A stretch of 64,000 bases of DNA from an uncultured Pseudomonadales bacterium (GCA_964637295.1 CAZWWE010000001.1:252312-316311); one strand, 5' to 3'; positions 21,889 to 42,295 are shown, counted from the first letter of the stretch. Numbers and translations: made by a program. Notes: a model not told the origin generated them from the sequence alone.

Positions 21889-24078
21889 TTATTTTGGTGG
21901 TTGGTAGTCGTTGATGTCGTAAATGCCGTGCTGGTCTGGTTTGAGGGTTTGCTCGTCATTTTCACTAAAGACAGTCTTAATTTGAAAATTATCTTTTTGA
22001 TCACGAGTTGTCAATTCTTGGTCGGCATTAAAAATTAATTGATCAGTTTTAAGCGCTTGTTCTGCTAATTTATTAGCGTTTTTTAGAGGATCAGTAGTAA
22101 GATCGACTTTTGGGTTTTTCCAAGCCAAAACACTGTTATTTAGATTCTCTTTTTCTTGAAAAGCCTGATTGTTGTCAAGTCGCTGTTTTTTTAAAGCTCT
22201 AATTTTTTGATAACTTTCAAAACTTTCACTCCTGGGATTTAGTCCAGAAGCTATGGTCTTTTTTTCATTTTTTTCATCTTCTTTTTTTAAGATTTCCTCA
22301 GGATTGGTGGTAATAACTTGATGTTCTTCTTCTGAAGCAATCACTCTCAATGCTACGTGATTTTGGCCGGCAAAGAAAATGCCTTCTCCTACGTCAGAAG
22401 AAACCAAGAGCTGTCTTTCGCCTTCAGATAAATAAAATGTTTGGGTGAGAATAGGGATAGAGGCGGTTGATTGTTTCATTAAAAATTGAATTGAGGCGTT
22501 AGAGACAATGGCCTTACCATAATCATTGCGTAAAAAATCTTCCACATCTTGAGTGATAGTGGTAATGCCCAGATAGTATTTGCGGGCTCTTTTGACCATG
22601 GAGTAAACAAAGGCAGCACTATCAGGATGCATCATAAAATACCACGCTTCATCAATGACCAAGATGCGTCTTTTGAGATTTTTTTTGACTCTAGTCCAAA
22701 TAAAGTCAAGAATAACGTACATAGCGATTGGTCGCAGCGACTCTTCCATTTCTTTGACAGAAAAAACTGTAAATTGCGAACTGATATCAACGTTAGAAGC
22801 TTGATTAAAAATACCACGAAAAGAACCGGTGATAAATTTTTCCAATCTTGCAGCCAAATCATCACTTTCTTCTCTTTCCATGCCGATCAGTGCTTTATAA
22901 AGATCTTCCATTAAGGGAGGAGTGTTTTTTTGTGTGGCTGGATCAGGAGTAATGCCTTTGGCTTTGTAGGCGGCAATGATGGCGCGATCAAGAATAGCTT
23001 CTTGTTGAGGGGTCATTTCTCCCAGCATTACTTTAAGCAAACCGTGAATGGAAAGAATTTTTTGTCCCAATTCGTTTTCACCTTCCTCGTAAACATTGGA
23101 TAGATCAAAAGGATTAATTTTTGCCTTTGAACCAAAAGTGAAATTGATATATTCACCACCGACCATTTTACATAGTTCTTCATATTCATGCTCTGGATCG
23201 AGAACAATAACTTCGGCGTCAAACATTAATTGTCTTAAGATTTCCAATTTGACAGTGTAAGATTTACCAGCGCCAGATTTGGCAAAAATCACCATGTTGG
23301 CATTTTCCATTTTGAAACGATCGAAAATGACTAATGAATCATTGTGTTCATTAATGCCATAAACAATACCAGTTTCCATGGTCAGCTCGGAAGAAGTAAA
23401 GGGAAAAGTCGTTGCCAGTGAGGTGGTGTCCATGTTTCTAGTGACTGAAAGGCGATCAACTCCCATTGGCAAAGTGGTTTTGAAGCCTTCGTCCATTTGT
23501 AGAGCAGATTTTTTGGAAACAATCATTAGCGCTCCTAGGGTACCCTGAATGCTTTTGGTGATTTTATCCAGCATTTCTTTGCTCTCAGCCCTCACAGTAA
23601 TGTAAAGTCCAAATTGAAAAAATCTTTCTGAGCCAGCAGCTAGTTGCTCTCTCATGGCGCGAGCATCACTTAGTTTAATTTCTGTGTTAATATTGCTAAT
23701 TTTTCCAGATCTAATGTCTGAAGTAATTTCTGCCTCCATTTCGGTAATTTTTCTCTTAAGATTATCAAGAATATCTCCCGTATCTGAAGGAAAAATAAAC
23801 ATAGATATATTGGCTTGATTAGGATAGTTAATTAAAGGAGAGAGCCAATTGGCTGGTACCGCCCTTGGGTAGCCAGCAATAAACAGAGTACGAGTATAAG
23901 TGGAGTTAATTTTTTGATAAGTAAAATCAACCTCAATTGCTTCTGGAGCAATGATGTCTTGAATGGTGACTAAACCACGAGAAAATTCGCTTAATTTTTC
24001 TTGCGTGTACTGTTCCGCGTTAATTTTATTCTGATCAGCTGTAACCGGAGTTTTTTTCTTAGAAAATAAATTTAGCAT
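21889..24078 (-). CDS. virB4: Type IV secretion ATPase VirB4/TrbE/CagE family (monoderm-type)
   Basis: Walker A VIFAKSGAGKSYTVK and Walker B ILVIDEAWYF. Start placed at MLNLFSKKK (ATG 24078), 1 nt after the upstream gene's stop. The track ORF starts at 24228 and overlaps the neighbour. Confidence 0.8.
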   Translation of the reverse strand: MLNLFSKKKTPVTADQNKINAEQYTQEKLSEFSRGLVTIQDIIAPEAIEVDFTYQKINSTYTRTLFIAGYPRAVPANWLSPLINYPNQANISMFIFPSDTGDILDNLKRKITEMEAEITSDIRSGKISNINTEIKLSDARAMREQLAAGSERFFQFGLYITVRAESKEMLDKITKSIQGTLGALMIVSKKSALQMDEGFKTTLPMGVDRLSVTRNMDTTSLATTFPFTSSELTMETGIVYGINEHNDSLVIFDRFKMENANMVIFAKSGAGKSYTVKLEILRQLMFDAEVIVLDPEHEYEELCKMVGGEYINFTFGSKAKINPFDLSNVYEEGENELGQKILSIHGLLKVMLGEMTPQQEAILDRAIIAAYKAKGITPDPATQKNTPPLMEDLYKALIGMEREESDDLAARLEKFITGSFRGIFNQASNVDISSQFTVFSVKEMEESLRPIAMYVILDFIWTRVKKNLKRRILVIDEAWYFMMHPDSAAFVYSMVKRARKYYLGITTITQDVEDFLRNDYGKAIVSNASIQFLMKQSTASIPILTQTFYLSEGERQLLVSSDVGEGIFFAGQNHVALRVIASEEEHQVITTNPEEILKKEDEKNEKKTIASGLNPRSESFESYQKIRALKKQRLDNNQAFQEKENLNNSVLAWKNPKVDLTTDPLKNANKLAEQALKTDQLIFNADQELTTRDQKDNFQIKTVFSENDEQTLKPDQHGIYDINDYQPPK

Positions 24079-24079
24079 A

Positions 24080-25243
24080 TTAAGTCGATGTTTGATTTGG
24101 TTGGGTTGACAATGGTTTTTGTAATGGTTGTATTTCTTCGCTGAAGTCGTCAGTTTCAGACATAGTTGTTGTAGCAGTTGCGGTAAACTCGCTTGAATTG
24201 TTGCTGTTGAGGCTTGGTGTACCTCCAAAAACTGGCACTTCGTTGGTGAACGAAGTTGTTACTTGAGGAATAACTGGGGTCTCTGGAGCAACTGGATTTA
24301 CTGGGTTTGCTGGATCCGCTAGAGGAACTGAATCCCTCGAAGTAAGCGGAGCCGTTTGTATTGTTGGTATTTCTTGGGCAACTGGTTGTTCTTGAGTTGC
24401 TGGTGCTTCTCGGGTGACTGGTTTTTCTTGAGCTACCGGCATTTCTTGAGCGACCGGTATTTCTTGAACAATTGGTCCTTCTTGAGTCACACTGTCGATT
24501 GAAGGATTAATGACTGATTGCTGTAAAGGTGTTGTTGTAATATTTGAACTCATAATTTTTTCTCCAAAGCTCGCCCTGACCAAGGGTGTGGTGTAATTCT
24601 CGTTATTGCTAATTTCTTGTCCCTCAGCTGCTTCGGGATTGTAATTAATATAAAAATTTTGAATAATTTCCTGAGTGTTTAGTTGTTTAGTGTAGAGTCC
24701 AAGTCGATTGAACTGAGAAATGAGATGATCGCGACGTGGCTCCAATAAATTTGCCGCTTTTTCCAAAATAATGCTTTTTTCAATACTATTGATGTCGAAA
24801 GTAGTTTTGCCAGGCAGAACATTGGTGGCGGTAATGAGACCCATTTCTCCTGGACTAGCTGGCACAGTGACGTAAAAATGTTTTTCCAAAACATTTCTTT
24901 CTTTAATCAAAGTGGCCACAAAATCTCGATACTGTTTAATTAGTTTAGCTTTGCGATCCGAGTTGGCTTTTTGCATTTGTTCATCAAGTAGTCTTAAGTA
25001 TTTAGTGACGTCTTTGGTTTGCGATTGAATGTTGATTTGAATAGGATAATTAAGAGAGTTTAATAAAGAACCATAGGTAAAAATGATAGCGTCTTGTTCT
25101 TGTTCGGCCAGCAAACTGAAATTCATCGTGCCCACCTGCAAAATAATTGAAGCAGTGCCGTCTTTCAAAAGAACAATATCGTTAATAATGTCATAGACAT
25201 CAAGAAATTCTTGAGTGGTGGAACTAATTACTTTATCGCTCAT
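24080..25243 (-). CDS. T4SS-associated hypothetical protein with Pro/Gln-rich heptad repeats
   Basis: Translationally coupled to virB4. C-terminal repeats PIVQEIPVAQEMPVAQEKPVTREAPATQEQPVAQEIP are encoded by 21-nt tandem repeats. Confidence 0.4.
   Translation of the reverse strand: MSDKVISSTTQEFLDVYDIINDIVLLKDGTASIILQVGTMNFSLLAEQEQDAIIFTYGSLLNSLNYPIQINIQSQTKDVTKYLRLLDEQMQKANSDRKAKLIKQYRDFVATLIKERNVLEKHFYVTVPASPGEMGLITATNVLPGKTTFDINSIEKSIILEKAANLLEPRRDHLISQFNRLGLYTKQLNTQEIIQNFYINYNPEAAEGQEISNNENYTTPLVRASFGEKIMSSNITTTPLQQSVINPSIDSVTQEGPIVQEIPVAQEMPVAQEKPVTREAPATQEQPVAQEIPTIQTAPLTSRDSVPLADPANPVNPVAPETPVIPQVTTSFTNEVPVFGGTPSLNSNNSSEFTATATTTMSETDDFSEEIQPLQKPLSTQPNQTST
24380..24500 (-). repeat. 21-nt tandem repeats encoding (P-V-A-Q-E-x-P)n
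   Basis: Plus-strand period-21 units: ...ttcttgagctaccggcatttcttgagcgaccggtatttcttgaacaattggtccttcttgagtcac. Confidence 0.6.
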
Positions 25244-26208: not shown

Positions 26209-27192
26209 TTATTTTTGGGCAGCGCTGGCCACTGCTGGAGTGATAATTTTGGCCTCGATATTAATTCCGGCCGAATTAGTTAGTTTGGCGCTAAATTTGT
26301 AAAAAGGATAGGCAATTTTTAATTCACTGTCATAGCGATATTCGATTTCGACCGCATACAAATCGGCTTCGATAATCCAATTAAGATCGATGACGTTGGC
26401 AATTTTGCTTTGAGCATCAATAATAGAGCCAACGCCATTTTTGATATTTTTAACAGCTTGGTCAAGCGAAAGAGAAGAAATTTCTCTTGCTGGCTCAAAG
26501 ACTTGATAGCTATCTTTAAATACAATTTTTCTAACTTCATAATTATGGTCGATTTTGCAAAAAAATGGATAATTATTTTCATTTTCGTAAAAAACTGAGA
26601 AGCCGTTTAACTCGTAAGTGAAAGGAATTTGTAAATAAACAGCGTCTTTTGGATCAGTTTCTCTTTGTTCTAATGTGCCACCAAGATACAAAATGCTATT
26701 TTTTTGAGCTATTAAAGATAGATCGAGATTGTATTTTTTATAAAAATTGGCGCATTGAGAGATTGCTTCTTCAATAACAATGGGAACAAAAGCACTTTCA
26801 TTTTTTGAGCCAATGTCAAAACTCCATCTGTTTTCAAAAACATTTTTAATTAAAAAGTTTTCGTCTTTAATCCAATAATTTCCCATTTTTTCATCTTTTT
26901 CCAATTGATATTCTCTAATGATTTTGTTGGCCAACTCATCTTCTAAATTTAAAGTGGCTTTGGCTTGAAAAATTGTAAAAAATTCTGGCACAAAAATTTT
27001 TTGGCCAGAAAAATCAATTTTTTTGTAAGTAGTCTGAGTCTGATTGTAATTATTGTTAACGAAATTATTTTGAACGATGGTTTCTTTTTGGGGAGTGATT
27101 AAAATCAATATCGCAGAAATCAATAATGAAACCGAAGCAAAAATAATTAATAGCGGAATGATTTTGATTTCTTTTTTGTTTTTTTTATTCAT
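26209..27192 (-). CDS. Bitopic membrane protein (possible VirB8-like T4SS component)
   Basis: Single N-terminal TM IKIIPLLIIFASVSLLISAILILI followed by a ~290-aa ectodomain. Overlaps the upstream giant gene by 8 nt. Confidence 0.3.
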   Translation of the reverse strand: MNKKNKKEIKIIPLLIIFASVSLLISAILILITPQKETIVQNNFVNNNYNQTQTTYKKIDFSGQKIFVPEFFTIFQAKATLNLEDELANKIIREYQLEKDEKMGNYWIKDENFLIKNVFENRWSFDIGSKNESAFVPIVIEEAISQCANFYKKYNLDLSLIAQKNSILYLGGTLEQRETDPKDAVYLQIPFTYELNGFSVFYENENNYPFFCKIDHNYEVRKIVFKDSYQVFEPAREISSLSLDQAVKNIKNGVGSIIDAQSKIANVIDLNWIIEADLYAVEIEYRYDSELKIAYPFYKFSAKLTNSAGINIEAKIITPAVASAAQK

Positions 27193-30100
27193 AGCAGGTG
27201 GTTACTCCATCATTTAAAAGTGGTGGATAATTGCCTTTATTGGTTTCTGGTACTAAAGTTTCAATAATGGAAAAATTTCTTGGACTAGGATGATAAAAAA
27301 CACCGTTAAAATCTACTTCATAATGCAGATGAGGTCCGGTTGAATTACCCCGATTGCCCATGGGGCCAATCAAAAAGCCTTCTTCAGTGTTCATGCAGGA
27401 TTCTGCCTGTGACAGCTGATCATTTGGCGCCTCAAAATGAGCAAATAATAATTTGCGACTAGTGCCGCTGTCGTCAAACGTCAAAACATAATAACAACCA
27501 TAGCCGCTGTCGCTACAACCCTTAAAGCAAAGTTCACCAGCGTAGGGCACATAAACATTGGGAAATTTGCCGCCGCCGCCGATATCATATGCATCAGCAT
27601 AGCCTTTAGAAAGAGGAGATCGATGAGAAGCATCTGCGTCTGGAGTTCCGACGCCAAAAGGTAATTGAGAAATGCCTCCGGTCGTTGGCCAACAACCGGC
27701 ACCAGCACTGCAGTTGCCAAGACAGACTCTGGCGGCGGTTTTGAGATTGTCTTGACCAGAGATAAAATTATTTTGGTAATAAAAGTTAAGCTCGATGGTG
27801 TTAATGATGGCAGTGTGATTGTAATCTGAGCTTAGGTCGTCGAGGGTATAAGAAAAAGTCAAGTTTTCTCCGGCTGGAATAATAATAAAGTCTGTTTCTG
27901 CGGGACTGGGATTTGCCAGGGGATCATTGACGTTGGCTGGCACATAGCTTGGTTCTTGTGGTATTGAAGAACCAGGATCGTTGAGTGGCTTTTGATCGAG
28001 GGCTTGATTGGCTTTGATAATTTTTTTGAAGTAAGCAAAATCTAGATTTTTTTGTGTTGGTATGGCGGGTATGGGTTTGCCACTTTCTTCCCAACCTTTT
28101 TTGCTTTGTTTAAATTTGATTTGATCTGTAATGTTGTTTATTTGTAGCGAAAAATCTTCTTTGGGCTTAACGGTGACGGTGTATTCGATGGAGAGTGGAA
28201 AACCGGGATTTTCACATTTAGTGCCATTGTTTTCAGGATTGGTACAGCCCTTGACAATTTTGGCAGTTTTTTTCATTTCTGCATATTTGGAAGTTTTTTC
28301 AACAGATTTGTTAATTTCAGATTCATTGAAAGGAAAATCAGTTAAAAAAGCTGAATTGAGACTAGTTTGATAAATCAAAACCAAGGTGGCCGTGGTGCCA
28401 AAAGTAATTAGCACGGCGCGACCAGCAGTTTGCATGGCGGTAGAATAATGTTGGCTGAGCAAGCTTTTGGCGCCATGTGGCAGTTGGGATTCAATTTGTT
28501 GTTGAGCAGAGACGTTGCTGTGTAAAATTCCGCCACTGGCTCCTCCGGCTCCACCTAGCGATTTACCAGCGGCCCCCAACAATCCTCGACTGCCAAATAG
28601 TCCGTTTCTGAGTAAAAAATAACCAGGAGCTAATAGCAAAAGCCAAGGGAGCAAGGCAGAAAGAGCGGCTAAAATTAGTCCTAAAACTATTAGTGGCCAA
28701 TATTTTTTAATTAGCTCAAGAATTTTTTCCAAGCCCATCTCGATCAGCTGCTCTTTAATTTTTTTGATAATGGGCAGCGCTGTTTCAGCGGCGCGCAAGG
28801 CCTCGCCTAAACCACCGGCCGCATCAAGAGCTAAATAAAGTCCCTCACTCAAGGCTTTGCTGGCTAGTTTTTTACCTTTTTGTCCTAAGGCACTGTCGAG
28901 AAAAGCTGTGCCCTGGTAATTCTCTCCGGGTGCAAAAGCTCTTTGCACGTAGCCACTGTCATCTGCCATAAAAGCATCTGCTCCAAATTGTTCAGCCATC
29001 TGTAGCATGTAAAAGTCCATGGGATTGATTTGCGGCGCAATTTGTTTCTGAAATACTTCTAGGCTGTATTCTTGATATGTGACTCCTGGAGCATAATAAT
29101 CAAAAAAAACTTTGAGCGTGTTTTGCTGTTCTGCTTGAGAAAGTTTAGCAATCTCTGTTTCTAAATATTTTTTGATAAGTTCTTGTTGTTGTTCTTGAAA
29201 AGCTAGGAGCTCTCGATTGTTAGGGTCGGCAAGCTTTGCCAGGCCTTCGGTAATTTGTTTGCCTCCGTAGCTTAAATTGAGTGCACCCAAGCGGCGCAAG
29301 GCTGCTAATTTTTTTGGATCTTTTTTGATGGTTTCGAAAAGTTGTTCTGCTTGTTCTGGAGTATATTTTTCTAGGCCCAGTTCTCGACCAACTATATTGA
29401 TATAGATAGCTCTTTTGCGTTTCCAATAAAAAATGATCAAATTGGCCAATTCTTCGCTGTGAGCATCGAAATCTTGTCGATCTAGGCTGTTGCCAAAAAG
29501 ATTGACAAAGCGGCCATAATCGAAATTTTTGGCATCTGGAATTAGAAATTCTGGCGGCAAGCCCTGTTGAATAAAAACTTCAACGAGCGGGCGAACATTT
29601 TCGATCACCAAGCTCATTCTGGCTCGATCTTGAGAGTTGGTGATGCTAATCAATTTTTCGAGGAAGGCTTTTTCTAAATAATTTTCATCTTGAATGATAT
29701 TGAGCTCAGATTCGATAATTTTGGCGAAATTTGAGTTATCTTGCTGAGTTGTTAATAGTTCTTCAGCTTTTTGACTAGTTAAAACATTTTCCTCAGTAGT
29801 GTCATTTTTGGCTCTGGAGCCAAGCTGGTCTGCTGTGAGTGGCTCTTTTTCGTTGGCACGAATTTGCACTTGACCGCCCTGAGCAATATTTCTGACGGCA
29901 GTGTTGAGTAAATTTAAACCATGAACATCCATTAATAAGTTTAAGGCTGTTTGGTTGCTAAAATTAATTCTTTCTGCTGGCTCACTGATTAATTTATCCA
30001 GCGAAAATTGCCCGCTAAGCAACAGGTTTTCTACTTGTGCAAAAGCTCGATCCATTAATTGCTGTCTTATTGCTAATGGAAGCTGGTCAAAAGTAATCAC

Positions 30101-30925
30101 TGTGCCTGGCGGTAAGCCAATTTTTGCCAGCGAAGCCGCGTTGAAATATCTACTTAGAGCTTGATTGATGGTGATAATTGAGAGCGACTGTAAATAGAGC
30201 TTGGCTTGAGGATCGAGCTCAGAGATTTTGAGGGGAGGGGCTTGTTTAGGTGACTCATCAGGAGGCCTTGGCTCTGTTTCTTGACCAGCGGCTTCTGCGC
30301 CTTCTTCATTTTTTGTAGTACTTGGCCAGGCTATTCCAGCCCCAGAGCCTTGCTTTTGTTCCAAATCTTCTTCTACAGAACTTGTTTCTGTCGATTGAAT
30401 CGCTTCAACACTCAAGCTGGGTCGAAGAATTGCATAAATTAATCGAATTCTTTCAATAATTTGCCGTGAAGATTCATAGTCTTCAATTTTTTGTAGCTCT
30501 TCGAGGCTAATTTTTTCTTCTGCTGGAGAAACGCCAATTAAGCTAAAAGTATTTTCCAATCGGTCAAGTTCCACTCTTTGAGCTGAGTTAATAGAAATCT
30601 TATTACTGGTCAAGGAAGTGCGGATTTGTTCAACGAAATTTACTAGGTCCGAGAGAAACAAAAAGGGCTCTTTGCCGTCAACGGGAACAGTGCCGTTCTC
30701 GATATCATTGGCAGTGCTCAAGTCAAATTCGCCACCATAACTAAATCCTTCAATGGCAAAATTTCCCTTAACTTTTTTGTGGCCGGCCGCCTCATTGTAG
30801 AAATCACTAATCCAATCAATGCTTTTTTGAAGCACTTCACTGATTTGATCAGCACTAAGACTATCAACTCCAGCCAATTTTTTCAGCTTAATGCGAGTGT
30901 TTTGATTGATTTTCTCGTCCGCCAT
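27185..30925 (-). CDS. Giant T4SS-associated membrane protein with C-terminal M23 peptidoglycan endopeptidase domain
   Basis: 1246 aa. ~740-aa N-terminal region, then TM YWPLIVLGLILAALSALLPWLLLLAPGYFLL. Gly-rich GLLGAAGKSLGGAGGASGG. C-terminal M23 signature GNRGNSTGPHLHYEV. Confidence 0.6.
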   Translation of the reverse strand: MADEKINQNTRIKLKKLAGVDSLSADQISEVLQKSIDWISDFYNEAAGHKKVKGNFAIEGFSYGGEFDLSTANDIENGTVPVDGKEPFLFLSDLVNFVEQIRTSLTSNKISINSAQRVELDRLENTFSLIGVSPAEEKISLEELQKIEDYESSRQIIERIRLIYAILRPSLSVEAIQSTETSSVEEDLEQKQGSGAGIAWPSTTKNEEGAEAAGQETEPRPPDESPKQAPPLKISELDPQAKLYLQSLSIITINQALSRYFNAASLAKIGLPPGTVITFDQLPLAIRQQLMDRAFAQVENLLLSGQFSLDKLISEPAERINFSNQTALNLLMDVHGLNLLNTAVRNIAQGGQVQIRANEKEPLTADQLGSRAKNDTTEENVLTSQKAEELLTTQQDNSNFAKIIESELNIIQDENYLEKAFLEKLISITNSQDRARMSLVIENVRPLVEVFIQQGLPPEFLIPDAKNFDYGRFVNLFGNSLDRQDFDAHSEELANLIIFYWKRKRAIYINIVGRELGLEKYTPEQAEQLFETIKKDPKKLAALRRLGALNLSYGGKQITEGLAKLADPNNRELLAFQEQQQELIKKYLETEIAKLSQAEQQNTLKVFFDYYAPGVTYQEYSLEVFQKQIAPQINPMDFYMLQMAEQFGADAFMADDSGYVQRAFAPGENYQGTAFLDSALGQKGKKLASKALSEGLYLALDAAGGLGEALRAAETALPIIKKIKEQLIEMGLEKILELIKKYWPLIVLGLILAALSALLPWLLLLAPGYFLLRNGLFGSRGLLGAAGKSLGGAGGASGGILHSNVSAQQQIESQLPHGAKSLLSQHYSTAMQTAGRAVLITFGTTATLVLIYQTSLNSAFLTDFPFNESEINKSVEKTSKYAEMKKTAKIVKGCTNPENNGTKCENPGFPLSIEYTVTVKPKEDFSLQINNITDQIKFKQSKKGWEESGKPIPAIPTQKNLDFAYFKKIIKANQALDQKPLNDPGSSIPQEPSYVPANVNDPLANPSPAETDFIIIPAGENLTFSYTLDDLSSDYNHTAIINTIELNFYYQNNFISGQDNLKTAARVCLGNCSAGAGCWPTTGGISQLPFGVGTPDADASHRSPLSKGYADAYDIGGGGKFPNVYVPYAGELCFKGCSDSGYGCYYVLTFDDSGTSRKLLFAHFEAPNDQLSQAESCMNTEEGFLIGPMGNRGNSTGPHLHYEVDFNGVFYHPSPRNFSIIETLVPETNKGNYPPLLNDGVTTCYE

Positions 30926-31025
30926 TCTATTTTATTATAACTTTTTACTCATGAGCTTGAAAGAGCAGGAAACAATAATTTACATATTAAACTTTTATAT
31001 CAAAATTGGTACAATATTTTAATCT

Positions 31026-33185
31026 ATGATAGAAGATTTTAATGGTGACCAAGAAGCAATTGGTTTGGCAAATGACATTAAAAAAGTCATTGCTGAATTG
31101 TCCCAAAAAATGGCAATTATATTTAGGGAGATTGACAAATCTGAAGACGGTAAAGATAGTTCTGGCAAACAAATTGATAGATCTCATTTGAAAGAAGTTG
31201 ACAAATTATTTGCCAGATTAAATAATCTAATGTCTCAGCTTGGTTTAGCAAATTTATCTGGGTTAGTGGACGAAGAAAAAGTAAGAGAGTATCAAGAAAA
31301 AATTATTAATCTTACTGACTATTATCAAAACTTATCTAAACAAATTGAAGATCTAAACCCTGCTTCTAAAGATCCTAAAACGATGACCATCGAAGAGGTT
31401 ATTCAGATTTTAGAAAGAGTTGTTGACGATGGGTCTGATTATTACAGAGAAGTAAATCAAAGATTCTTAGAATTACCTAAAGGTCCTCCGCTTAAAGAAG
31501 CAAAATATAGATGTAAAAGAGTCTTTCAAGCAATTTTGGCAAAAGGTGATACTGGTGAAAAAGATTTTGGCATCTGGTTTCCAGAAATTACTAACCAATT
31601 GATTAATAAAACCACTAACTTTATAGACATTGGTAGATATTTATTTACCATTCATTCAGAAAAAGATGAAAATTTATCAATTGAAGACGTAGACAGGTTG
31701 CCAATTAACGAAATTGCTTTGGATATGTGGGACTATGCCCTAGCCAGAATTAAGGGTAAGTATGGTGGTTTAGAAACTGATCCCGACAATCCAAACGATC
31801 ATACTAATTTTGATTATGCTCATTTATTTGGAGATAATATTACCGTTTTTCGCGATCATTTGAGGGCTAAATTTTCAAGTATTGATGATGAGCTTTTTGA
31901 GCAACTTTTTAAGTTTCTTCAATCTCATGATATAAAAACCACTGCTTATGTTGCTTGGCTAGCTAGAGAAACCACTCGTTCTCATGGTGCTGGTCCAGCC
32001 AAGTTAAGAGGTGAAAAATTTGAGGATCCTCTTTTTACGGTAGCTCCTTTTGCAGCTGGCATTTACAGCAGAGGTAGATATGGAGACGTAATTCCAAACA
32101 ACAGTTCGCCCGACATGGTTTTGATGCCCAGAGATGTAGCTGTTAATATTATTCCAGATAAAAAACCTGGAAAGCCTAACGAAAGTAAGAGAAAATCAGC
32201 CGCTGCGCTATGGGACATCGTCAATTCTTATTATACGAAGATTATGTGGCGAGGTACTCCTACATGGATAACTGAAGTAAGAAGCTTGTTTGGTATTGGT
32301 AGCAACGAGATAGATTTGTATAAAACTATGTTTCCAATGCCCGGCGAAGTGATAGTGGATACTTACAGAATTGAACTGGAAAGAAGAAAAATGAACGAAC
32401 GTCACGTTAGTGAGATTAGAAGACTAGAAAAGTTGAGAGATGCCGCTCCTACTCTTCCTGAAAAAGAAGCAATAAATAAAAGAATAGAAGAATTCCGCAA
32501 AATAACAATGGTAGCAGAAAAACAGTCATTCATCGATAAGTGGGAGAGATATGGTTATAGTGATAGATTTGATGAGATTGGTATAAGAAAATTGGCACAG
32601 AGCCCGGACGGCAAAGGTTATAATTTATCAGTTAGTCAATATGATGTTTCATTCAGAGCTATGACTGAAATGACAGATTTTTTCCATCAACCTTTTGGAA
32701 AAATGAACTTCGATCAATGTGTAGAAAAATTTAAACACTGGATGGATAAGATCATTGGTAAGGCAAAATTGGTTCCAGGAAGACATTATGTTTTGTTTCC
32801 ATACTTAACCATGTTTGCCATTGATAAAATCATTTCAAGCTATGAGCTTAGAGATAAATCTTATAAAATTAAGAGCTTAATTGAAAGATTGGGGGAGGAA
32901 TTAGAGCAAGCTGGCGGAGTTCCCGAAATAGTGAAAAAAAAGGTTTTTAATTTTATTCGTCAAGACGAAAAAACTTTTGGAGTTTTCCCAACTGCCATTG
33001 CTTCTAAAGAATATAAACAGGATCTTTATAGATTCAAAACAAGAGTGATGAATGGTGATGAAGAAAAAATTAGAAGACTTATTCCTCTTGGTTTGGCAGC
33101 TGTAAGAGAAGATGGTACTCCAATGAAAGTAGTTGTGCCTTGGGATTGGGGTGTTAAAACAGATAAAGACACGGCTGGCAAATAG
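31026..33185 (+). CDS. Hypothetical 719-aa soluble protein with coiled-coil N-terminus, embedded in T4SS locus
   Basis: No TM or signal peptide. Coiled-coil-like N-terminus. No motifs recognised. Confidence 0.35.
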   Translation: MIEDFNGDQEAIGLANDIKKVIAELSQKMAIIFREIDKSEDGKDSSGKQIDRSHLKEVDKLFARLNNLMSQLGLANLSGLVDEEKVREYQEKIINLTDYYQNLSKQIEDLNPASKDPKTMTIEEVIQILERVVDDGSDYYREVNQRFLELPKGPPLKEAKYRCKRVFQAILAKGDTGEKDFGIWFPEITNQLINKTTNFIDIGRYLFTIHSEKDENLSIEDVDRLPINEIALDMWDYALARIKGKYGGLETDPDNPNDHTNFDYAHLFGDNITVFRDHLRAKFSSIDDELFEQLFKFLQSHDIKTTAYVAWLARETTRSHGAGPAKLRGEKFEDPLFTVAPFAAGIYSRGRYGDVIPNNSSPDMVLMPRDVAVNIIPDKKPGKPNESKRKSAAALWDIVNSYYTKIMWRGTPTWITEVRSLFGIGSNEIDLYKTMFPMPGEVIVDTYRIELERRKMNERHVSEIRRLEKLRDAAPTLPEKEAINKRIEEFRKITMVAEKQSFIDKWERYGYSDRFDEIGIRKLAQSPDGKGYNLSVSQYDVSFRAMTEMTDFFHQPFGKMNFDQCVEKFKHWMDKIIGKAKLVPGRHYVLFPYLTMFAIDKIISSYELRDKSYKIKSLIERLGEELEQAGGVPEIVKKKVFNFIRQDEKTFGVFPTAIASKEYKQDLYRFKTRVMNGDEEKIRRLIPLGLAAVREDGTPMKVVVPWDWGVKTDKDTAGK

Positions 33186-33245: not shown

Positions 33246-34910
33246 TTAAACTTGAAAATCAACTTCATCTTCAGTAGTGGCAGTTTCCCTAGCCTTTCTT
33301 TCTTCAGCAGCCCTAATTTTTTCTTTATTATAAGCTTGTGAAACCAGAGCTTTTTCCCAATTATTTGGATCAAATGCTTTTCCTTCAAGTAGCGTATCCA
33401 AGGCTCTAGCTTCTTCATTTCCTTTAGCAATCTGTATGCCCATGTTGGTTTTAACAGATTTGCCAATCGTTGGAATTGCAACATCCAATCCCTGACCTTT
33501 GGATGATCTAACTCCCTCAAACACGCCTTTTCCAAGACCGTATGCTCCTCTAGCAATTGGAGGTGTGTAAACAGTTGCGTTCTTCATATTCTTCAATGCC
33601 GATCCCGCCAATTGTCCAAATACGCCTTCTTCCACACCCATGGCCTTTTTGACTTGTTGCATGATTTCTGGAATGACCAAGAGAATGCCGATGCCTAGAA
33701 TGACGGGAATGATGTTGGCTTGACCTTGACCAACTAAAAATGGAGGCATGAAGCCACCGCCAAAAGCGCCATCCAGCGCGTCACCGGTGCCTTGCAGGCT
33801 TCTAATCGGAGCAGTTAGCATTCTTTGTACCAACACACAGAGTAAAACCACTGGCCACAGCACCAAGTTGCCAGCTAAATTTTTGAGCCATTTGCCGAAA
33901 GTATCTTTACCAGGAAAAGCGCCAAGCATCAAGATAATTGGCGAAAAGATAATTTGGATTAACACGGCCACATAAGTTTTGACCAGTTCAAAAAAAATTT
34001 TGAAAGTGGCAAAAAGAATAGCGATGCCGATAATGACCGTACCTAGTAAACTAGATAGCCAGGCGATTGCTTCTCCAACAAAAGAAATATTAAGCGCATC
34101 TTCCATAAATTGTTCAATGGCATTTTGCGTGGCACTGCCAGTGTCAGTGCCCTTAAACATTAGACCAATTAAGCCAAAAACATTGCGAGTGATAATGTCG
34201 GGCCCTTCGGTAAAATAGCCGGCTAAAACATACATCGCCACGTACATGATATCAATCATCAATCCGGCGATGGCATAGGAAAAAGTAACGGCGAGCATGG
34301 CGATCACCACGTTGGGAATAGCTTGCTGAGCCGTAATGGCAGCTTGACCAACCTTGGTGCGAAACATGATCATGAAACCAATAATCAGAAAAATAACCAC
34401 AAAAAAAAGATAAGCTAAATTGCGAAAAGATTTCCAAGTTTCTAGAATTGGATCAAGGGCGGAAAAACCTAAACCCTGGGCCTGCGCTTCTGGAATAATT
34501 TTGGCAGATTTCATCAAGTCAGCAACATAAGAGCGCGTGCTAGCGGGTGGAGTATACAAAGCTACGATGCCTTGATTTACTGAACCAATTAAACCCCCGC
34601 CCAAGCTTTTTTCAAGAGCAATCTTATCTGCACCAGTTATGCCTGCAAGCTTGGCTACTGTTTCTCCTCCATACACACTGCCATTAATAAAATTAAAACT
34701 ATTAGACCAAGTTGAAGAAACATTTTTTTCTTGAGCGACACCTTCTCCAAGAATTGCGTTGGTATAACTATTTGTAGCTTCTTCTATGCGAAAAATAGAG
34801 GCAATCCAATCAGAAACAAAATTCGCTTTTGCAGGTTTAATTGATATAAAAAAACACGAAAAAATACACAAAATAATTAATGATAAGCGAAAGTCTTTTA
34901 CTTGTGTCAT
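33246..34910 (-). CDS. Polytopic membrane protein, VirB6/TrbL-like
   Basis: Signal peptide plus at least six TMs (LAYLFFVVIFLIIGFMIMF, AIAGLMIDIMYVAMYVLAGYF, VIIGIAILFATFKIFFELV, LIQIIFSPIILMLGAF, LVLWPVVLLCVLV, IIPVILGIGILLVI) and a hydrophilic C-terminal tail. Lies within the T4SS cluster. Confidence 0.4.
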   Translation of the reverse strand: MTQVKDFRLSLIILCIFSCFFISIKPAKANFVSDWIASIFRIEEATNSYTNAILGEGVAQEKNVSSTWSNSFNFINGSVYGGETVAKLAGITGADKIALEKSLGGGLIGSVNQGIVALYTPPASTRSYVADLMKSAKIIPEAQAQGLGFSALDPILETWKSFRNLAYLFFVVIFLIIGFMIMFRTKVGQAAITAQQAIPNVVIAMLAVTFSYAIAGLMIDIMYVAMYVLAGYFTEGPDIITRNVFGLIGLMFKGTDTGSATQNAIEQFMEDALNISFVGEAIAWLSSLLGTVIIGIAILFATFKIFFELVKTYVAVLIQIIFSPIILMLGAFPGKDTFGKWLKNLAGNLVLWPVVLLCVLVQRMLTAPIRSLQGTGDALDGAFGGGFMPPFLVGQGQANIIPVILGIGILLVIPEIMQQVKKAMGVEEGVFGQLAGSALKNMKNATVYTPPIARGAYGLGKGVFEGVRSSKGQGLDVAIPTIGKSVKTNMGIQIAKGNEEARALDTLLEGKAFDPNNWEKALVSQAYNKEKIRAAEERKARETATTEDEVDFQV

Positions 34911-38763: not shown

Positions 38764-39657
38764 CTAGGAAAGAATGCGAATACCAAAAATAATTTCCAAG
38801 AGTTGAGCGATCCAGTAGGCAGCAAATAAAATAATAAAACCAATGATGGCTGAGGTAATTTTTTGCTTCCCTTCGTCTAATGATTTGGAGTTATTAGCTC
38901 CAGATAACATTTGAAAACCTCCAAGCAACATGACGACGAATAAAATAATACCTGCGATGGGAAAAATGAAAAACTGCAGTGCTCGAGAAATAATTTTTCC
39001 AGGATTTGACAAATCTACGCTACTACCACCGATTTTAAAGGGATTGAGGCTTTCTAAGGTTGCCGCGCTAACTTCAACGTCATTAATTCCTACATCAGTA
39101 TTCTGACATTGACCATCTCGGTACCAGCCACAGCAACGAGTGTTACCAGTACTGCGATTGGGAATTGCCTCTTGATTAGAGCACACACACTTTTTGGCAT
39201 TTTGAGCATCGGGATCATATTCAGTGCCACAATAAACCTCGTTGACCTGAGGGGGAGCGCTGAGACATTGAGTTTTTTCTGGATTTAGCCAGCCGCAGCA
39301 GACTCTGTTGACCACATAATTATAGGACTGCCATTGTCCTCCTGGACAATCGCAAACCCCTCCCTGTGGGACGCTGGCTCTCATTCTGCTTTCACCACAG
39401 GCATAAATATTTGGATCCTTATTGGCGTAGCACTGACCTTCGATGGAAGAATAAGAGCCGCAGCAGTAATATATTTCACTAAGGACATTGCCGATAAAAT
39501 CTGGTTTATTATTAACATTACTGCAATTGCACATATTACTAACATCTTCTCCAAGTCGAGCTCTGAAAGTTTCACCGCATTGATATGCCTGGCTAGTATT
39601 AGTGAAAATTAAACAGAAAAAAACAGAAATAAATAGAGTTTTTAGTATTTTTTTCAT
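38764..39657 (-). CDS. Cys-rich secreted ectodomain fused to C-terminal VirB2-like pilin hairpin (paralog 9)
   Basis: Start at the internal ATG 39657 (signal peptide MKKILKTLFISVFFCLIFTNTSQA), 1 nt after the upstream gene's stop. CCGW/CxC-rich ectodomain. C-terminal IILFVVMLLGGFQMLSGANNSKSLDEGKQKITSAIIGFIILFAAYWIAQLL. Confidence 0.55.
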   Translation of the reverse strand: MKKILKTLFISVFFCLIFTNTSQAYQCGETFRARLGEDVSNMCNCSNVNNKPDFIGNVLSEIYYCCGSYSSIEGQCYANKDPNIYACGESRMRASVPQGGVCDCPGGQWQSYNYVVNRVCCGWLNPEKTQCLSAPPQVNEVYCGTEYDPDAQNAKKCVCSNQEAIPNRSTGNTRCCGWYRDGQCQNTDVGINDVEVSAATLESLNPFKIGGSSVDLSNPGKIISRALQFFIFPIAGIILFVVMLLGGFQMLSGANNSKSLDEGKQKITSAIIGFIILFAAYWIAQLLEIIFGIRILS

Positions 39658-39658
39658 C

Positions 39659-40519
39659 TTATTCTCCAAATCCTGGTATGCGTAAAATTGATACACCAAT
39701 AAATTGTAAGATAGTGACTGAAAAAATGACAAATAAAAGGCCAATAATTGCCGAAGTAATAATTTCTTTTGCCTCTTTGGTTTTATTTGGATCGCCTTGA
39801 GAAACTGATAGCATGAAAGAACCCACCAAAATCATAATTAGAACGATGCCGCCACCGGCTGTCAGGCCAATGGTCACGATGGTTGTAATAACACTTTCTG
39901 GATCACTAGGAATACAACCTACAGCTGTCCAGACGCCGCCATTTTGAAAACAAGCCTGACAAGCTTCGAATTGGCTGGTGCCTTCTTTGATTTGTTGTTT
40001 GCAAAGATCATAATTGGCAACTGCGTCAGTTTTTGTATTACATTGATTTTCCTCATTGCCGCATTGCAAAGCTGCTTGCGGAGAAGCAATGTAAATTTTT
40101 TGATCTGTAGTGGTGAGAGTGGGATATAAAATAACTGTTAGTTTATAAGAGCAATTAGGTTCAATATTTTTTCCTGCAATCACAATATCAACCGCGCCAT
40201 TTTTTACATCAAAAAAAGAATTATACATATCAGTAAATCCATTTTTGCAAGCTAAAGTTGTGCCGTCTAAATAAACTTTAATAGCTTTTCCATCAACAAT
40301 TTTGCCATCCGCATAAGCGATGTCGGTTAATTTCACATGCACATCTGTTCCAGCCTGGACACAGCCACTTAAAAAATTGCAATTTTGTCCATCTCTTTCT
40401 TGATAGACTTCCGTTGTCCCAATTCTGGCAGTCCCAGCCGCCAACACTTCTTTCACGTTGAGTGAAAAAAGTGAGCTAATCAATAAAAACACTAGAGCTA
40501 TTTTTCTCATTTTCGTCAC
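39659..40519 (-). CDS. Cys-rich secreted ectodomain fused to C-terminal VirB2-like pilin hairpin (paralog 8)
   Basis: Signal peptide MTKMRKIALVFLLISSLFSLNVKEVLA. Cysteine-rich ectodomain. C-terminal IVLIMILVGSFMLSVSQGDPNKTKEAKEIITSAIIGLLFVIFSVTILQFI. Confidence 0.55.
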   Translation of the reverse strand: MTKMRKIALVFLLISSLFSLNVKEVLAAGTARIGTTEVYQERDGQNCNFLSGCVQAGTDVHVKLTDIAYADGKIVDGKAIKVYLDGTTLACKNGFTDMYNSFFDVKNGAVDIVIAGKNIEPNCSYKLTVILYPTLTTTDQKIYIASPQAALQCGNEENQCNTKTDAVANYDLCKQQIKEGTSQFEACQACFQNGGVWTAVGCIPSDPESVITTIVTIGLTAGGGIVLIMILVGSFMLSVSQGDPNKTKEAKEIITSAIIGLLFVIFSVTILQFIGVSILRIPGFGE

Positions 40520-40579: not shown

Positions 40580-42295
40580 ATGAAGCTGCTGCGTCATTTA
40601 TTTTTTTTACTTTGTTTACTGCTTTCTGTTGCGCTAGTTTTGTTTGCAAATTTATGGTTTATACCTAAAACAGCCCAGGCGATTTCAGATATTGAGCAGT
40701 TACAACAAGACATTGACAAGCTAGAAGAGCTCAAAAAACTTTCCGAAAATGCGACTGCTCCTCTCGAAAAAGAAGTGGCCGGTTTAGAAGCAAGGATCAA
40801 TTCAGCTCAAGCCGGAATTAATAAAGCCAAAACTCAAGCTCAAGAATTGGCTAAAAATATCGAAAAGAGAGAAACTGATTTGGCCTATCATTATCAACTT
40901 TTTGCCAATCGTGTTGCCGAATCATATAAAAGAGAGCGTGTCTTTAATCCCTTGGCTCTTTTTCTTTCTAGTCAAAATGCTAGTCAAATGACCAAAGATT
41001 TGGCTTATAAAGAATCGGCTCGCGCTCAAGATGACCGCTTGATTCGTTCTCTTTCTGGAGAAATTGCTCAGTTGCAGGCAGATAAAAAACAATTAGAGTC
41101 TGATCAAATTCGTTTAGCCGCTCTTTCAGTTCAACTTGACAAGCAGGCCGATTTTTTCAAAGGCGAAATCGCCAAGGCTAAGGCTTATCAAAGCGAATTG
41201 AGTGGCAAAATAGCGTCTTTATCAGCCAAACAGCAAGCGATTTTGTCGGAAAAATCTGGTACTTTTCAAACCACTGTCGGTGACGTGCCTTTGGCCGATG
41301 ATCCAGCCAGTCGCCCTGATTATAAACCGGGTTTCTCACCAGCTTTTGCCGTGTTTAGTTTTGGAGCACCACATTTCAAAGGCATGAGCCAATATGGAGC
41401 TTTGGGTCGTGCCAAAAGTGGCCAAAGCTACGAAAAGATTCTCAGGGCTTATTACGGAAGTGGGATAGAAATCAAAACTGTTGATGTCAATCAAAAAATC
41501 ACCGTTGATGGCTATGGTTCTTATTCTTTGGAAGAATACACCAAGAGAATTTATGAAGTGCCCAACAGCTGGGGAGACGACGGTGGTATGGAGGCGCTCA
41601 AAGCTCAAGCAGTGGCAGCACGCAGTTATGTTTTGGCGAGAGGGTCTTCAATCTGTGCGACTGAAGCCTGCCAGGTTTTTAAGCCAAGTCCCAAAGGGGG
41701 TAATTGGGAAAAAGCTGTCAATGAAACTAAGGGCAAGGTGGTTTATGCCAACGGCAAACCTTTTTCGACTTGGTACGCCTCTACTTCAGGTGGATATCAA
41801 GAGTCATATTCTGCCAATGGCTATTCAACACCAGGTTTTTGGGATACAGCTGATGGACGTAATGGTTGGACCTCCAAAGCTTATGAAAAAATTGCTGGTT
41901 CACCGTGGTTTTATAAAGCCTGGTATAAAACTAGATCGGGAGATGCTTGTGGACGCAATCATCCTTGGCTAACAAGTGAAGAAATGGCTGATATTTTAAA
42001 TGCTTGGGTGGTGATGTATAAAGGTGGTGGAGACAGTGGGCGAGTGACTCCAGAATCTTCTTGTTGGGGTGGTAATCCTTATAGCAAGAATGATCTACAA
42101 AAAATTGGTGGTTTTACTAGCGTCAGTGGGGTGAGTGTCAAATATTCCAATAATGGCACTACGGCTGAAGTTAGCTTCCAAACTAACAAGGGTAGCGTCA
42201 CCATCAATGGTAATGAATTTTATAAAACCTTCAACTTAAGAGCTCCGGGTAGAATTTCGGTCAAATCGGGGTTGTTTAATATCGAGAAAAAATAA
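40580..42295 (+). CDS. Secreted coiled-coil protein with C-terminal SpoIID/LytB domain (PcsB/CwlO-like architecture)
   Basis: N-terminal signal and long coiled coil (LEELKKLSE..., QLQADKKQLESDQ). C-terminus MEALKAQAVAARSYVLARG matches the SpoIID/LytB signature. Confidence 0.6.
   Translation: MKLLRHLFFLLCLLLSVALVLFANLWFIPKTAQAISDIEQLQQDIDKLEELKKLSENATAPLEKEVAGLEARINSAQAGINKAKTQAQELAKNIEKRETDLAYHYQLFANRVAESYKRERVFNPLALFLSSQNASQMTKDLAYKESARAQDDRLIRSLSGEIAQLQADKKQLESDQIRLAALSVQLDKQADFFKGEIAKAKAYQSELSGKIASLSAKQQAILSEKSGTFQTTVGDVPLADDPASRPDYKPGFSPAFAVFSFGAPHFKGMSQYGALGRAKSGQSYEKILRAYYGSGIEIKTVDVNQKITVDGYGSYSLEEYTKRIYEVPNSWGDDGGMEALKAQAVAARSYVLARGSSICATEACQVFKPSPKGGNWEKAVNETKGKVVYANGKPFSTWYASTSGGYQESYSANGYSTPGFWDTADGRNGWTSKAYEKIAGSPWFYKAWYKTRSGDACGRNHPWLTSEEMADILNAWVVMYKGGGDSGRVTPESSCWGGNPYSKNDLQKIGGFTSVSGVSVKYSNNGTTAEVSFQTNKGSVTINGNEFYKTFNLRAPGRISVKSGLFNIEKK

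Follow-up and report, generated by a model that had tools for sequence, protein, structure and literature searches.

A predicted membrane-anchored M23 peptidase with an orphan N-terminal module as candidate wall-cutting subunit of a chromosomal Patescibacteria type IV secretion system

The 64,000-nucleotide stretch of DNA analyzed here (the window) comes from a record titled uncultured Pseudomonadales bacterium (GCA_964637295.1, CAZWWE010000001.1:252312-316311). It encodes a 1246-residue protein with a C-terminal M23 metallopeptidase domain, the product of the first gene in an operon for a type IV secretion system (T4SS). We favor, with moderate confidence, the interpretation that this protein is the cell-wall-cutting subunit of a chromosomal Patescibacteria T4SS and a functional analogue, not a homologue, of the VirB1-class protein PrgK. 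In the proposed mechanism the N-terminal 742 residues would stay in the cytoplasm and dock on, or scaffold, a base formed by VirB4, TrsD and VirB3, the presumed partners. Two hydrophobic segments (residues 743-772 and 833-856) and the motif LNSAFLTDFP would, judging from hydropathy, embed the protein in the membrane, presumably beside the translocon, and two beta-sandwich domains with a Pro-rich spacer would hold the M23 zinc endopeptidase outside. This head, with a predicted LasA-type zinc site, is probably catalytically intact and disulfide-stabilized. It would cut peptide cross-links of the producer's own peptidoglycan at the assembly site, and the resulting opening would let the T4SS channel and a VirB2-like pilus pass. 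The interpretation rests on the T4SS operon and its synteny, the intact-looking M23 domain, the indications that the C-terminus lies outside, the nearby genes for processing the organism's own wall, the precedent of PrgK, and the modularity of the family.

An earlier reading of the window (the sequence-only reading) had delimited an open reading frame (ORF) of 1246 residues, and this assignment held. The ORF runs from ATG to a stop codon at 27185-27187, and the three peptides quoted in that reading (GNRGNSTGPHLHYEV, CLGNCSAGAGCWP and CFKGCSDSGYGCYY) all occur in the protein. A search of 5.8 billion proteins gave 36 full-length homologues of 1223-1319 residues with 37-73% identity. When a profile was searched against 1.84 billion representative proteins, 17 clusters were obtained, of which the full-length members (all 1096-1319 residues) had the same architecture. 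Since the entire architecture is kept in the 36 homologues and in further distant members, the ORF is a real conserved gene and not a chance product. The Pfam M23 family PF01551 was precomputed for 20 of the 36 homologues, one of which is titled 'M23 family metallopeptidase [Patescibacteria group bacterium]'. In total more than 40 full-length homologues were found, every one from Patescibacteria-type metagenome-assembled genomes (MAGs). Literature searches found no description of the protein. The titles of the related MAG records (L001-L014) conflict, naming 'uncultured Pseudomonadales', 'Candidatus Pacebacteria', 'Parcubacteria group' or 'Amphibacillus', and a complete 853-kb genome (CP011212.1) is titled 'candidate division TM6'; such record titles are unfit for taxonomy.

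The M23 domain and its zinc site

M23 was the only recognizable family in the protein, as the sequence-only reading had stated. PF01551 matched residues 1123-1209 with 25.0 bits, short of its gathering score of 28.7, whereas distant members with M23 heads (P0038-P0041) exceeded this threshold with 28.9-45.5 bits. The fold was modeled by AlphaFold2 (AF2) with a predicted local distance difference test (pLDDT) value of ~90 for residues 1080-1246, and Foldseek related it with a probability of 1.0 to LytM, lysostaphin, EnpA, Csd1/2 and NMB0315. Sequence and profile searches of the PDB reached the same M23 enzymes, with the family profile matching solved M23 enzymes at E 1e-5.

The first M23 motif had been described as degenerate, which was correct only for its spacing. 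The canonical HxxxD of M23B enzymes is absent, the residue at position −4 from D1114 being Ala here, variable in the family and His in one subgroup only. However, an invariant His sits 13-16 residues upstream of the Asp in the family. In the window protein (H1101-x12-D1114) the two residues are 13 apart, as are H23 and D36 of LasA, for which the sequence used was identical to that of PDB entry 3it5_A. Counted from this Asp, the HxH motif follows at a distance of 85 residues, compared with 84 in LasA. Residues H1101, D1111, D1114, H1163, H1199 and H1201 were invariant in alignments of both 26 and 37 sequences; five of these are the LasA-type residues. The H1199-L-H1201 motif aligns to the HLH of ShyA, NMB0315 and LasA. 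In an L-INS-i alignment with three solved M23A enzymes (LasA 3it5, 6ik4 and 8af1), H1101 was placed on LasA H23, D1114 on D36, HLH on HLH, QLPF on QLPW, C1144 on C65 and C1244 on C169. By hhalign, H1163 was placed on LasA H81, with 69 columns covered and a probability of 77.5%. The roles of the ligands and catalytic residues of LasA are those reported with its structure by Spencer et al. in 2010. From spacing, invariance and multiple alignment we propose H1101, D1114 and H1201 as zinc ligands and H1163 and H1199 as catalytic residues. The zinc site appears intact and of the M23A (LasA) type, and the loss of both zinc motifs that the sequence-only reading had asked about was not seen in the alignments.

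The likeness to LasA (staphylolysin), beta-lytic protease and pseudoalterin covers the spacing of the first ligands, QLP(W/F), HLH and two Cys positions, whereas the disulfide pattern of LasA is shared only in part. These M23A enzymes are small secreted proteins made as pre-pro-enzymes and typically serve as weapons against other bacteria. In contrast, the M23 domain of the window protein is the C-terminal module of a 1246-residue membrane protein without an N-terminal signal peptide. In overall similarity the family is closer to M23B than to M23A, its profile matching ShyA (M23B) at E 9.6e-6 and LasA at E 0.034. On these comparisons we assign the protein an M23 fold in which the first ligands are arranged as in LasA, but do not count it as a member of M23A, by overall similarity or by architecture.

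Other hydrolase domains were not found: there was no match to SLT/muramidase, CHAP or NlpC/P60 families of Pfam, NCBIfam or PHROGs in the 1246 residues. Because these domains are lacking, the protein falls, as judged by its domain content, outside the VirB1, TrsG and CD419 families. The same result bears on the possibility of an M23 domain that binds or regulates without catalysis, like those of PrgK-LytM, DipM, EnvC and SpoIIQ, in a structural wall-spanning T4SS subunit. This we regard as improbable. The absence of HxxxD with Ala at −4 from D1114, the Pfam score below threshold, and the degenerate, regulatory LytM domain of PrgK (PMC11323569) speak for it, but degenerate LytM domains lose the His and Asp residues, whereas all five proposed residues stay invariant down to 37% identity and in the distant members. 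Furthermore, the ligand spacing equals that of active LasA, and Pfam and NCBIfam searches gave no other hydrolase domain in the protein that could be regulated.

Ahead of the M23 domain lie two beta-rich domains separated by a variable Pro-rich spacer (Table 1). For the first of these, Foldseek returned only generic beta-sandwich neighbors (Spo0M, ApaG, TRAP). The ectodomain had been said to carry a Cys-rich stretch, and indeed all 10 Cys of the protein are in residues 871-1246, six of them in the M23 domain (C1078, C1133, C1137, C1144, C1177 and C1244).

Membrane segments and orientation of the C-terminal part

The first hydrophobic segment (TM1, residues 743-772) is preceded by 742 residues, in agreement with the ~740 counted before. 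The Gly-rich stretch that had been taken for the transmembrane (TM) segment itself is found at residues 776-800, after TM1. This first segment has a Kyte-Doolittle (KD) value of 2.58 and a Hessa-type 19-mer sum of ~−2.0, and its AF2 helix is broken at ~758. Its length is unusual, the mean over 41 homologues being 30 uncharged residues, and there is a central Pro or Gly-Gly; in the distant members P0042 and P0043 it is an ordinary 22-residue span.

That the protein is bitopic, with a single TM segment, had been an assumption, and a second conserved hydrophobic helix is present at residues 833-856. It is more conserved than segment 1. Its KD values across homologues are 1.3-2.1 and AF2 modeled a helix at 829-858 with low confidence. 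The Hessa-type sum of segment 2 was +1.8 to +4.4, to be compared with ~−5 to +4 for TM segments of PrgI, YidC and the VirB6 candidate of the window and with at least +7.4 for the best-scoring segments among the soluble proteins included. Segment 2 runs into (L)NSAFLT(D/H/Q)FP, a motif that is more conserved than any other short element in the family and survives replacement of the whole extracellular head.

Charges near the segments were averaged over 41 homologues. The 15 residues before segment 1, with the adjacent KK pair, carried +2.95 and −3.05, the 15 residues after it +2.2 and −0.7, and the entire loop between the segments (mean 55 residues) +4.9 and −2.9. The 20 residues from N857 onward, after segment 2, carried +0.2 and −3.3. 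The distribution of Cys was strongly asymmetric, with none in residues 1-870 of the window protein. In the family the part ahead of TM1 had 0.39 Cys on average and the part starting with the motif 10.4, the latter number being 10 or 12 in all 39 scorable M23-headed members. Other proteins of the cluster with a signal peptide are Cys-rich, and cytoplasmic ones Cys-poor. Because of the Cys distribution and the flank charges an extracytoplasmic position of the C-terminal part is favored. Hydropathy, the positive-inside rule and the Hessa-type scale narrowed the topology options, with more than one remaining: segment 1 may span the membrane or form an in-in hairpin, and segment 2 may be a true span, possibly similar to a signal-arrest-release (SAR) anchor.

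If both segments span the membrane, the large N- and C-terminal parts would be on the same side. The protein could then be a cytoplasmic effector delivered by the T4SS, comparable to the X-Tfe wall hydrolases of Xanthomonas, or both parts could be outside with a cytoplasmic loop. We consider this quite improbable. The TM-like hydrophobicity of segment 2 and its conservation above that of TM1, the net positive loop after TM1, and the ordinary span in P0042 and P0043 agree with two spans, but the Cys asymmetry (0 versus 10 here, 0.39 versus 10.4 in the family) and the acidic flank after segment 2, which has no Lys or Arg, argue against placing the two parts on one side. Export of a highly charged 742-residue N-terminal part without a signal peptide is also unlikely in view of the limits of N-tail translocation by Sec and YidC, and a TM segment of −2 kcal/mol would lead to co-translational insertion rather than secretion. 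The cytoplasmic M23 domain that the sequence-only reading had named as a contrary outcome is thus disfavored by Cys and charge, although a naive two-TM reading still puts the domain on the side of the N-terminus.

N-terminal module and exchangeable head

The domain layout was derived from AF2 models built with a 37-sequence alignment and from residue conservation. In these models the N-terminal part folds confidently into two domains, an alpha/beta domain and a larger all-alpha domain joined by a disordered acidic linker (Table 1). This part had been noted as unusual, which the searches bore out. The 742 residues had no family match in Pfam, NCBIfam or PHROGs and none among PDB hidden Markov models (HMMs) at E up to 10. 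The predicted fold, the determination of which had been suggested as a check, had no Foldseek neighbor in the PDB (best E 0.25) or in BFVD (best E 0.49). A motif scan of the N-terminal part found no Walker A or HExxH motif. As far as these searches reach, the module is a lineage-restricted orphan that is found only together with the membrane segments in this architecture.

The general design is reminiscent of phage tape-measure and ejection proteins such as the cyanophage A4 internal protein (9k2v), Gp16 (9m7n) and PHROG 10030, which are large and mostly helical, carry hydrophobic segments and a terminal M23 domain, and in which an M23 wall peptidase serves a trans-envelope conduit. The M23 region indeed matched PHROG tape-measure and endolysin families as well as 9k2v and 9m7n, large proteins with M23 at the C-terminus. 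However, derivation from such a protein, unrelated to the T4SS, is extremely unlikely: there were no phage genes nearby, the gene lies in a chromosomal VirB4 operon beside dnaA that is conserved in 9 loci, and the N-terminal domain is unrelated to these proteins by sequence and fold search, with no match in BFVD or PHROGs. A phage origin was rejected on the chromosomal T4SS context, the restriction of the PHROG matches to the M23 region, and the unmatched N-terminal domain.

Variation in the family is concentrated at the other end. The distant members P0042 and P0043 keep the N-terminal domain, segment 1, the loop, segment 2 and the motif, as (L/I)xSAFLT(Q/H)FP, and P0042 occupies the same operon position. 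In both, a domain of ~190 residues with 5-7 Cys and the motifs ACGPTS, GH(Y/F)YI and DP replaces the beta-sandwich and M23 domains. P0042 gave a weak Pfam match of this head to Peptidase_C39_2 (E 0.07) and P0043 gave none; a PDB search had no match, and only two fragment homologues, both unannotated, were found, which leaves the C39 assignment unconfirmed. We presume that the Cys...His...Asp-Pro pattern of this head (ACGPTS, GHYYIV, YDP) resembles that of C39 peptidases. We propose from these comparisons that the family combines a conserved chassis with an enzymatic head that can be exchanged as a module.

The secretion cluster and the target of the peptidase

The association with a T4SS made in the sequence-only reading was well founded. 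Downstream of the M23 gene follow genes for a 327-residue anchored protein, a PrgI/VirB3-like protein, a TrsD-like protein and VirB4, and then dnaA, dnaN and yidC, all on the strand of the M23 gene. Genes for the VirB6 candidate, a secreted 969-residue protein and the two VirB2-like pilins lie upstream, likewise on this strand. The M23 gene overlaps the gene for the 327-residue protein by 8 nt and the other gaps in the operon are 1-86 nt. The gene order is shared by 8 genome loci labeled Pacebacteria, Parcubacteria or 'uncultured', and by L015, a metagenomic contig with a distant family member in which the counterpart of the TrsD-like gene is called TraC-like. The family and PDB sequence searches gave no match for the 327-residue protein, which had been considered as VirB8-like, and none of the family searches matched the VirB6 candidate, for which the identification follows from hydropathy and synteny. 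Translation of VirB4 probably begins with the ATG at 24078 and not with the TTG at 24228 of the listed ORF, because the ATG is in frame and one base past the TrsD-like stop, while the TTG would give an overlap of ~150 nt with the TrsD-like gene. This start implies tight translational coupling of the two genes. A second hydrolase was not recognized among the scanned genes of the cluster.

Table 1. Features of the 1246-residue protein and of the surrounding T4SS genes, in window coordinates
Feature	Coordinates	Strand	Basis
Whole ORF, 1246 residues	27185..30925	(-)	Full-length homologues and distant members P0038-P0043
Alpha/beta domain, residues 1-172	30410..30925	(-)	AF2 model me6cfa64a7bb0, pLDDT ~65-93; majority-residue fraction 0.60; no family match
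Acidic Pro/Glu-rich disordered linker, residues 173-233	30227..30409	(-)	pLDDT <50; conservation 0.34; composition
All-alpha domain, residues 234-742	28700..30226	(-)	AF2 pLDDT 80-90, with ~500 all-alpha residues (234-710 in the model layout); no Cys
Hydrophobic segment 1 (TM1), residues 743-772	28610..28699	(-)	30 uncharged residues, central Pro; follows invariant K741 of the KK pair
Variable Gly/Ser/Gln-rich loop, residues 773-832	28430..28609	(-)	pLDDT <50; conservation 0.46; family mean charge +4.9/−2.9
Hydrophobic segment 2, residues 833-856	28358..28429	(-)	Ala/Gly/Thr/Val-rich, marginally hydrophobic helix; conservation 0.66
Juxtamembrane motif NSAFLTDFP, residues 857-865, after L856	28331..28357	(-)	Near-invariant; N857, A859, F860, L861, F864 and P865 invariant
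Beta-rich domain 1, residues 875-990 (C894, C904)	27956..28303	(-)	AF2 model m375865c0d20c, pLDDT ~80-93
Pro-rich variable spacer, residues 991-1012	27890..27955	(-)	pLDDT <50; conservation 0.34
Beta-rich domain 2, residues 1013-1075 (C1068, C1072)	27701..27889	(-)	AF2 pLDDT ~83-95; conservation 0.77
M23 metallopeptidase domain, residues 1076-1246	27188..27700	(-)	Pfam and PDB HMM matches, Foldseek, invariance, M23A alignment
327-residue protein, N-terminal TM anchor	26209..27192	(-)	8-nt overlap of its start with the M23 stop; kept in synteny
PrgI/VirB3-like protein, 284 residues	25268..26122	(-)	Pfam PF12666, 30.3 bits, above gathering score 27
TrsD-like protein, 387 residues, resembling the VirB4 N-terminal region	24080..25243	(-)	NCBIfam NF041427 and VirB4 N-terminal region, sub-threshold
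VirB4 ATPase	21889..24078	(-)	NCBIfam NF045971, 399 bits, above cut-off 325; Pfam P-loop_TraG
VirB6 candidate, 554 residues, signal peptide and ~6-7 TM segments	33246..34910	(-)	Hydropathy and synteny; inferred
Two VirB2-like pilin genes, Cys-rich N-terminal extensions	38764..40519	(-)	Pfam PF18895 T4SS_pilin, 32.7 and 29.6 bits, above gathering score 26.6

The cluster is a chromosomal Patescibacteria T4SS of the type described in 2023-2025, in an ultrasmall bacterium of the candidate phyla radiation. These systems are MPF_FATA-related, have no relaxase and carry pilin arrays (PMC10633639; PMC12102498; PMC12857230), and they adjoin dnaA/dnaN in Microgenomatia and Paceibacteria (PMC12102498). 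The window cluster corresponds to the published accounts (Wang et al. 2023, PMC10633639; Quinonero-Coronel et al. 2025, PMC12102498) in VirB4, TrsD, PrgI/VirB3, VirB6 and the VirB2-like pilin arrays, the lack of a relaxase and the position beside dnaA/dnaN. The 1246-residue protein is not described in either of them (PMC10633639; PMC12102498). VirB1 homologues are rarely near virB4 outside Paceibacteria, and other hydrolases may substitute (PMC12102498); for Saccharibacteria, only 'peptidase and lysozyme homologues downstream of virB4' are mentioned (PMC10633639; PMC12102498). In the present cluster, unlike these accounts, the hydrolase gene is the first gene, upstream of the VirB3, TrsD and VirB4 genes, and its product has a unique N-terminal domain.

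The closest functional precedent is PrgK of pCF10, a DELTA-class VirB1-like protein with TraG of pIP501, CwlT and TcpG as relatives, which is likewise encoded in a T4SS operon with VirB3-like and VirB4 proteins. PrgK has a 253-residue intracellular domain, a TM segment at residues 254-274 and extracellular LytM, muramidase and CHAP domains (PMC11323569; PMC12857230), and it is essential for conjugation (PMC11323569). The sequence-only reading had taken the hydrolases of monoderm T4SSs to be N-terminally anchored proteins with SLT and CHAP domains, a description that is too narrow for PrgK with its large intracellular part and its LytM domain (PMC11323569; PMC12857230). The window protein probably has the same order of a large intracellular N-terminal part, a membrane anchor and an extracellular wall-hydrolase region, and it shares an M23/LytM-fold domain. 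However, there is no sequence homology beyond the generic M23 fold, and the N-terminal part is a confidently modeled orphan of 742 rather than 253 residues. M23 is the sole enzymatic domain and keeps all proposed catalytic residues, whereas PrgK-LytM is degenerate. Further differences are the conserved segment 2 and its LNSAFLTDFP motif, and the T4SS encoded here is chromosomal and without a relaxase.

Several observations concern the wider neighborhood. A TATAAT box ends 8 nt before the ATG of the M23 gene, inside the 100-bp divergent intergenic region 30926-31025. No obvious Shine-Dalgarno sequence was seen before this ATG, and the mRNA may be leaderless or very short-leadered. A further promoter-like site lies on the minus strand of the same region at 31003-30975. 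The tandem pilins (38764-39657 and 39659-40519, both on the minus strand) have N-terminal extensions of ~200 residues with 19 and 10 Cys ahead of the two-helix hairpin; such PF18895 pilins with extensions are far larger than classical VirB2 pilins. A secreted 969-residue protein (35827-38736, minus strand) with a signal peptide and 22 Cys had no family match and conserved synteny with the T4SS cluster; it may act at the surface, as an adhesin or in association with the pilus. Downstream of yidC, jag and rnhA, near a putative replication origin, lies the gene for a 977-residue DUF4012 protein with one central TM segment (13143-16076, minus strand).

One or two large genes, divergent from the M23 gene, always separate it from the VirB6 candidate. 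In the window this is the gene at 31026-33185 (plus strand), and in the related loci the positions are L001 6664-9933, L002 6835-9912, L009 7110-9938, L011 6119-9766, L012 6228-9839, L003 6251-9863, L010 6231-9884 and L015 6482-9958. The products, encoded by a single gene of 720-1215 residues or by two genes (L003 and L010), are Cys-poor and without a signal peptide. They evolve fast, with 24-57% identity across loci, and the window copy matched only a fragment in L007. The protein could be a T4SS substrate or a specificity factor.

The cluster is flanked by a SpoIID-like gene (40580-42295, plus strand) and a VanW/PG_binding_4 gene (42297-44132, minus strand), and from this we conclude that the organism processes its own peptidoglycan. 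Against a subunit that opens the producer's wall speak the Pfam score below threshold, HMM alignments to solved M23 structures of which none covers the first-ligand region, and an N-terminal domain, the proposed dock on VirB4/TrsD/VirB3, that is without any homologue. Two membrane-spanning segments with a cytoplasmic N-terminus would furthermore put the peptidase in the cytoplasm, and because M23A-type enzymes typically attack other bacteria, a host-directed role fits, with the swapping of heads, as well as a self-directed one.

Such a host-directed lysin would be a T4SS-tethered peptidase that acts on the host bacterium's peptidoglycan where epibiont and host are in contact, and it would open this wall either to the pilus or channel or to allow the uptake of nutrients. 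Its exchangeable head would track the wall chemistry of the host, and segment 2 might be a releasable SAR-like anchor. We consider this explanation unlikely but plausible. The first-ligand spacing and several motifs match those of M23A enzymes, which are secreted bacteriolytic weapons, and in P0042 and P0043 the head is replaced while chassis and operon are otherwise conserved. Segment 2 is rich in Ala, Gly and Thr and weakly hydrophobic, a composition typical of SAR anchors. In addition, the Patescibacteria T4SS, which has no relaxase, is essential for epibiotic growth of a Saccharibacterium (PMC10633639; PMC12102498). However, a membrane tether limits the reach of the enzyme, the HMM score is closer to M23B housekeeping endopeptidases (ShyA) than to LasA, the lineage has no known host, and the characterized monoderm T4SS hydrolases all act on the donor wall (PMC12857230; PMC11323569). 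A more specific form is a host-breaching device, in which a LasA-type head, or in sister lineages a Cys-peptidase-like head, would be attached to the T4SS via the orphan 740-residue cytoplasmic domain and a possibly releasable SAR-like helix. It would cut the host wall so that the VirB2-like pilus or channel reaches the host membrane, and we regard it as doubtful. If it were true, the exchangeable head and the fast-evolving divergent neighbor gene would be host-range determinants of epibionts.

This type of T4SS and the general kind of membrane-anchored wall hydrolase represented by PrgK were already known; what the comparisons made here appear to add is the orphan cytoplasmic module, the second helix with its motif, and the exchangeable head. 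Before that of the Patescibacteria, no T4SS had been shown to be indispensable for the growth of the organism that carries it, and in most classes surveys linked no VirB1-type hydrolase to virB4. As a wall-cutting subunit acting on the producer's own peptidoglycan, the interpretation we favor, the family is a concrete candidate for the missing T4SS component of this kind in a Microgenomates/Pacebacteria-like lineage, and the ~740-residue module may reveal the link between a wall enzyme and the base with its ATPase. Should the target be the host wall instead, the enzyme would be of direct relevance to the way in which ultrasmall epibionts breach their hosts.

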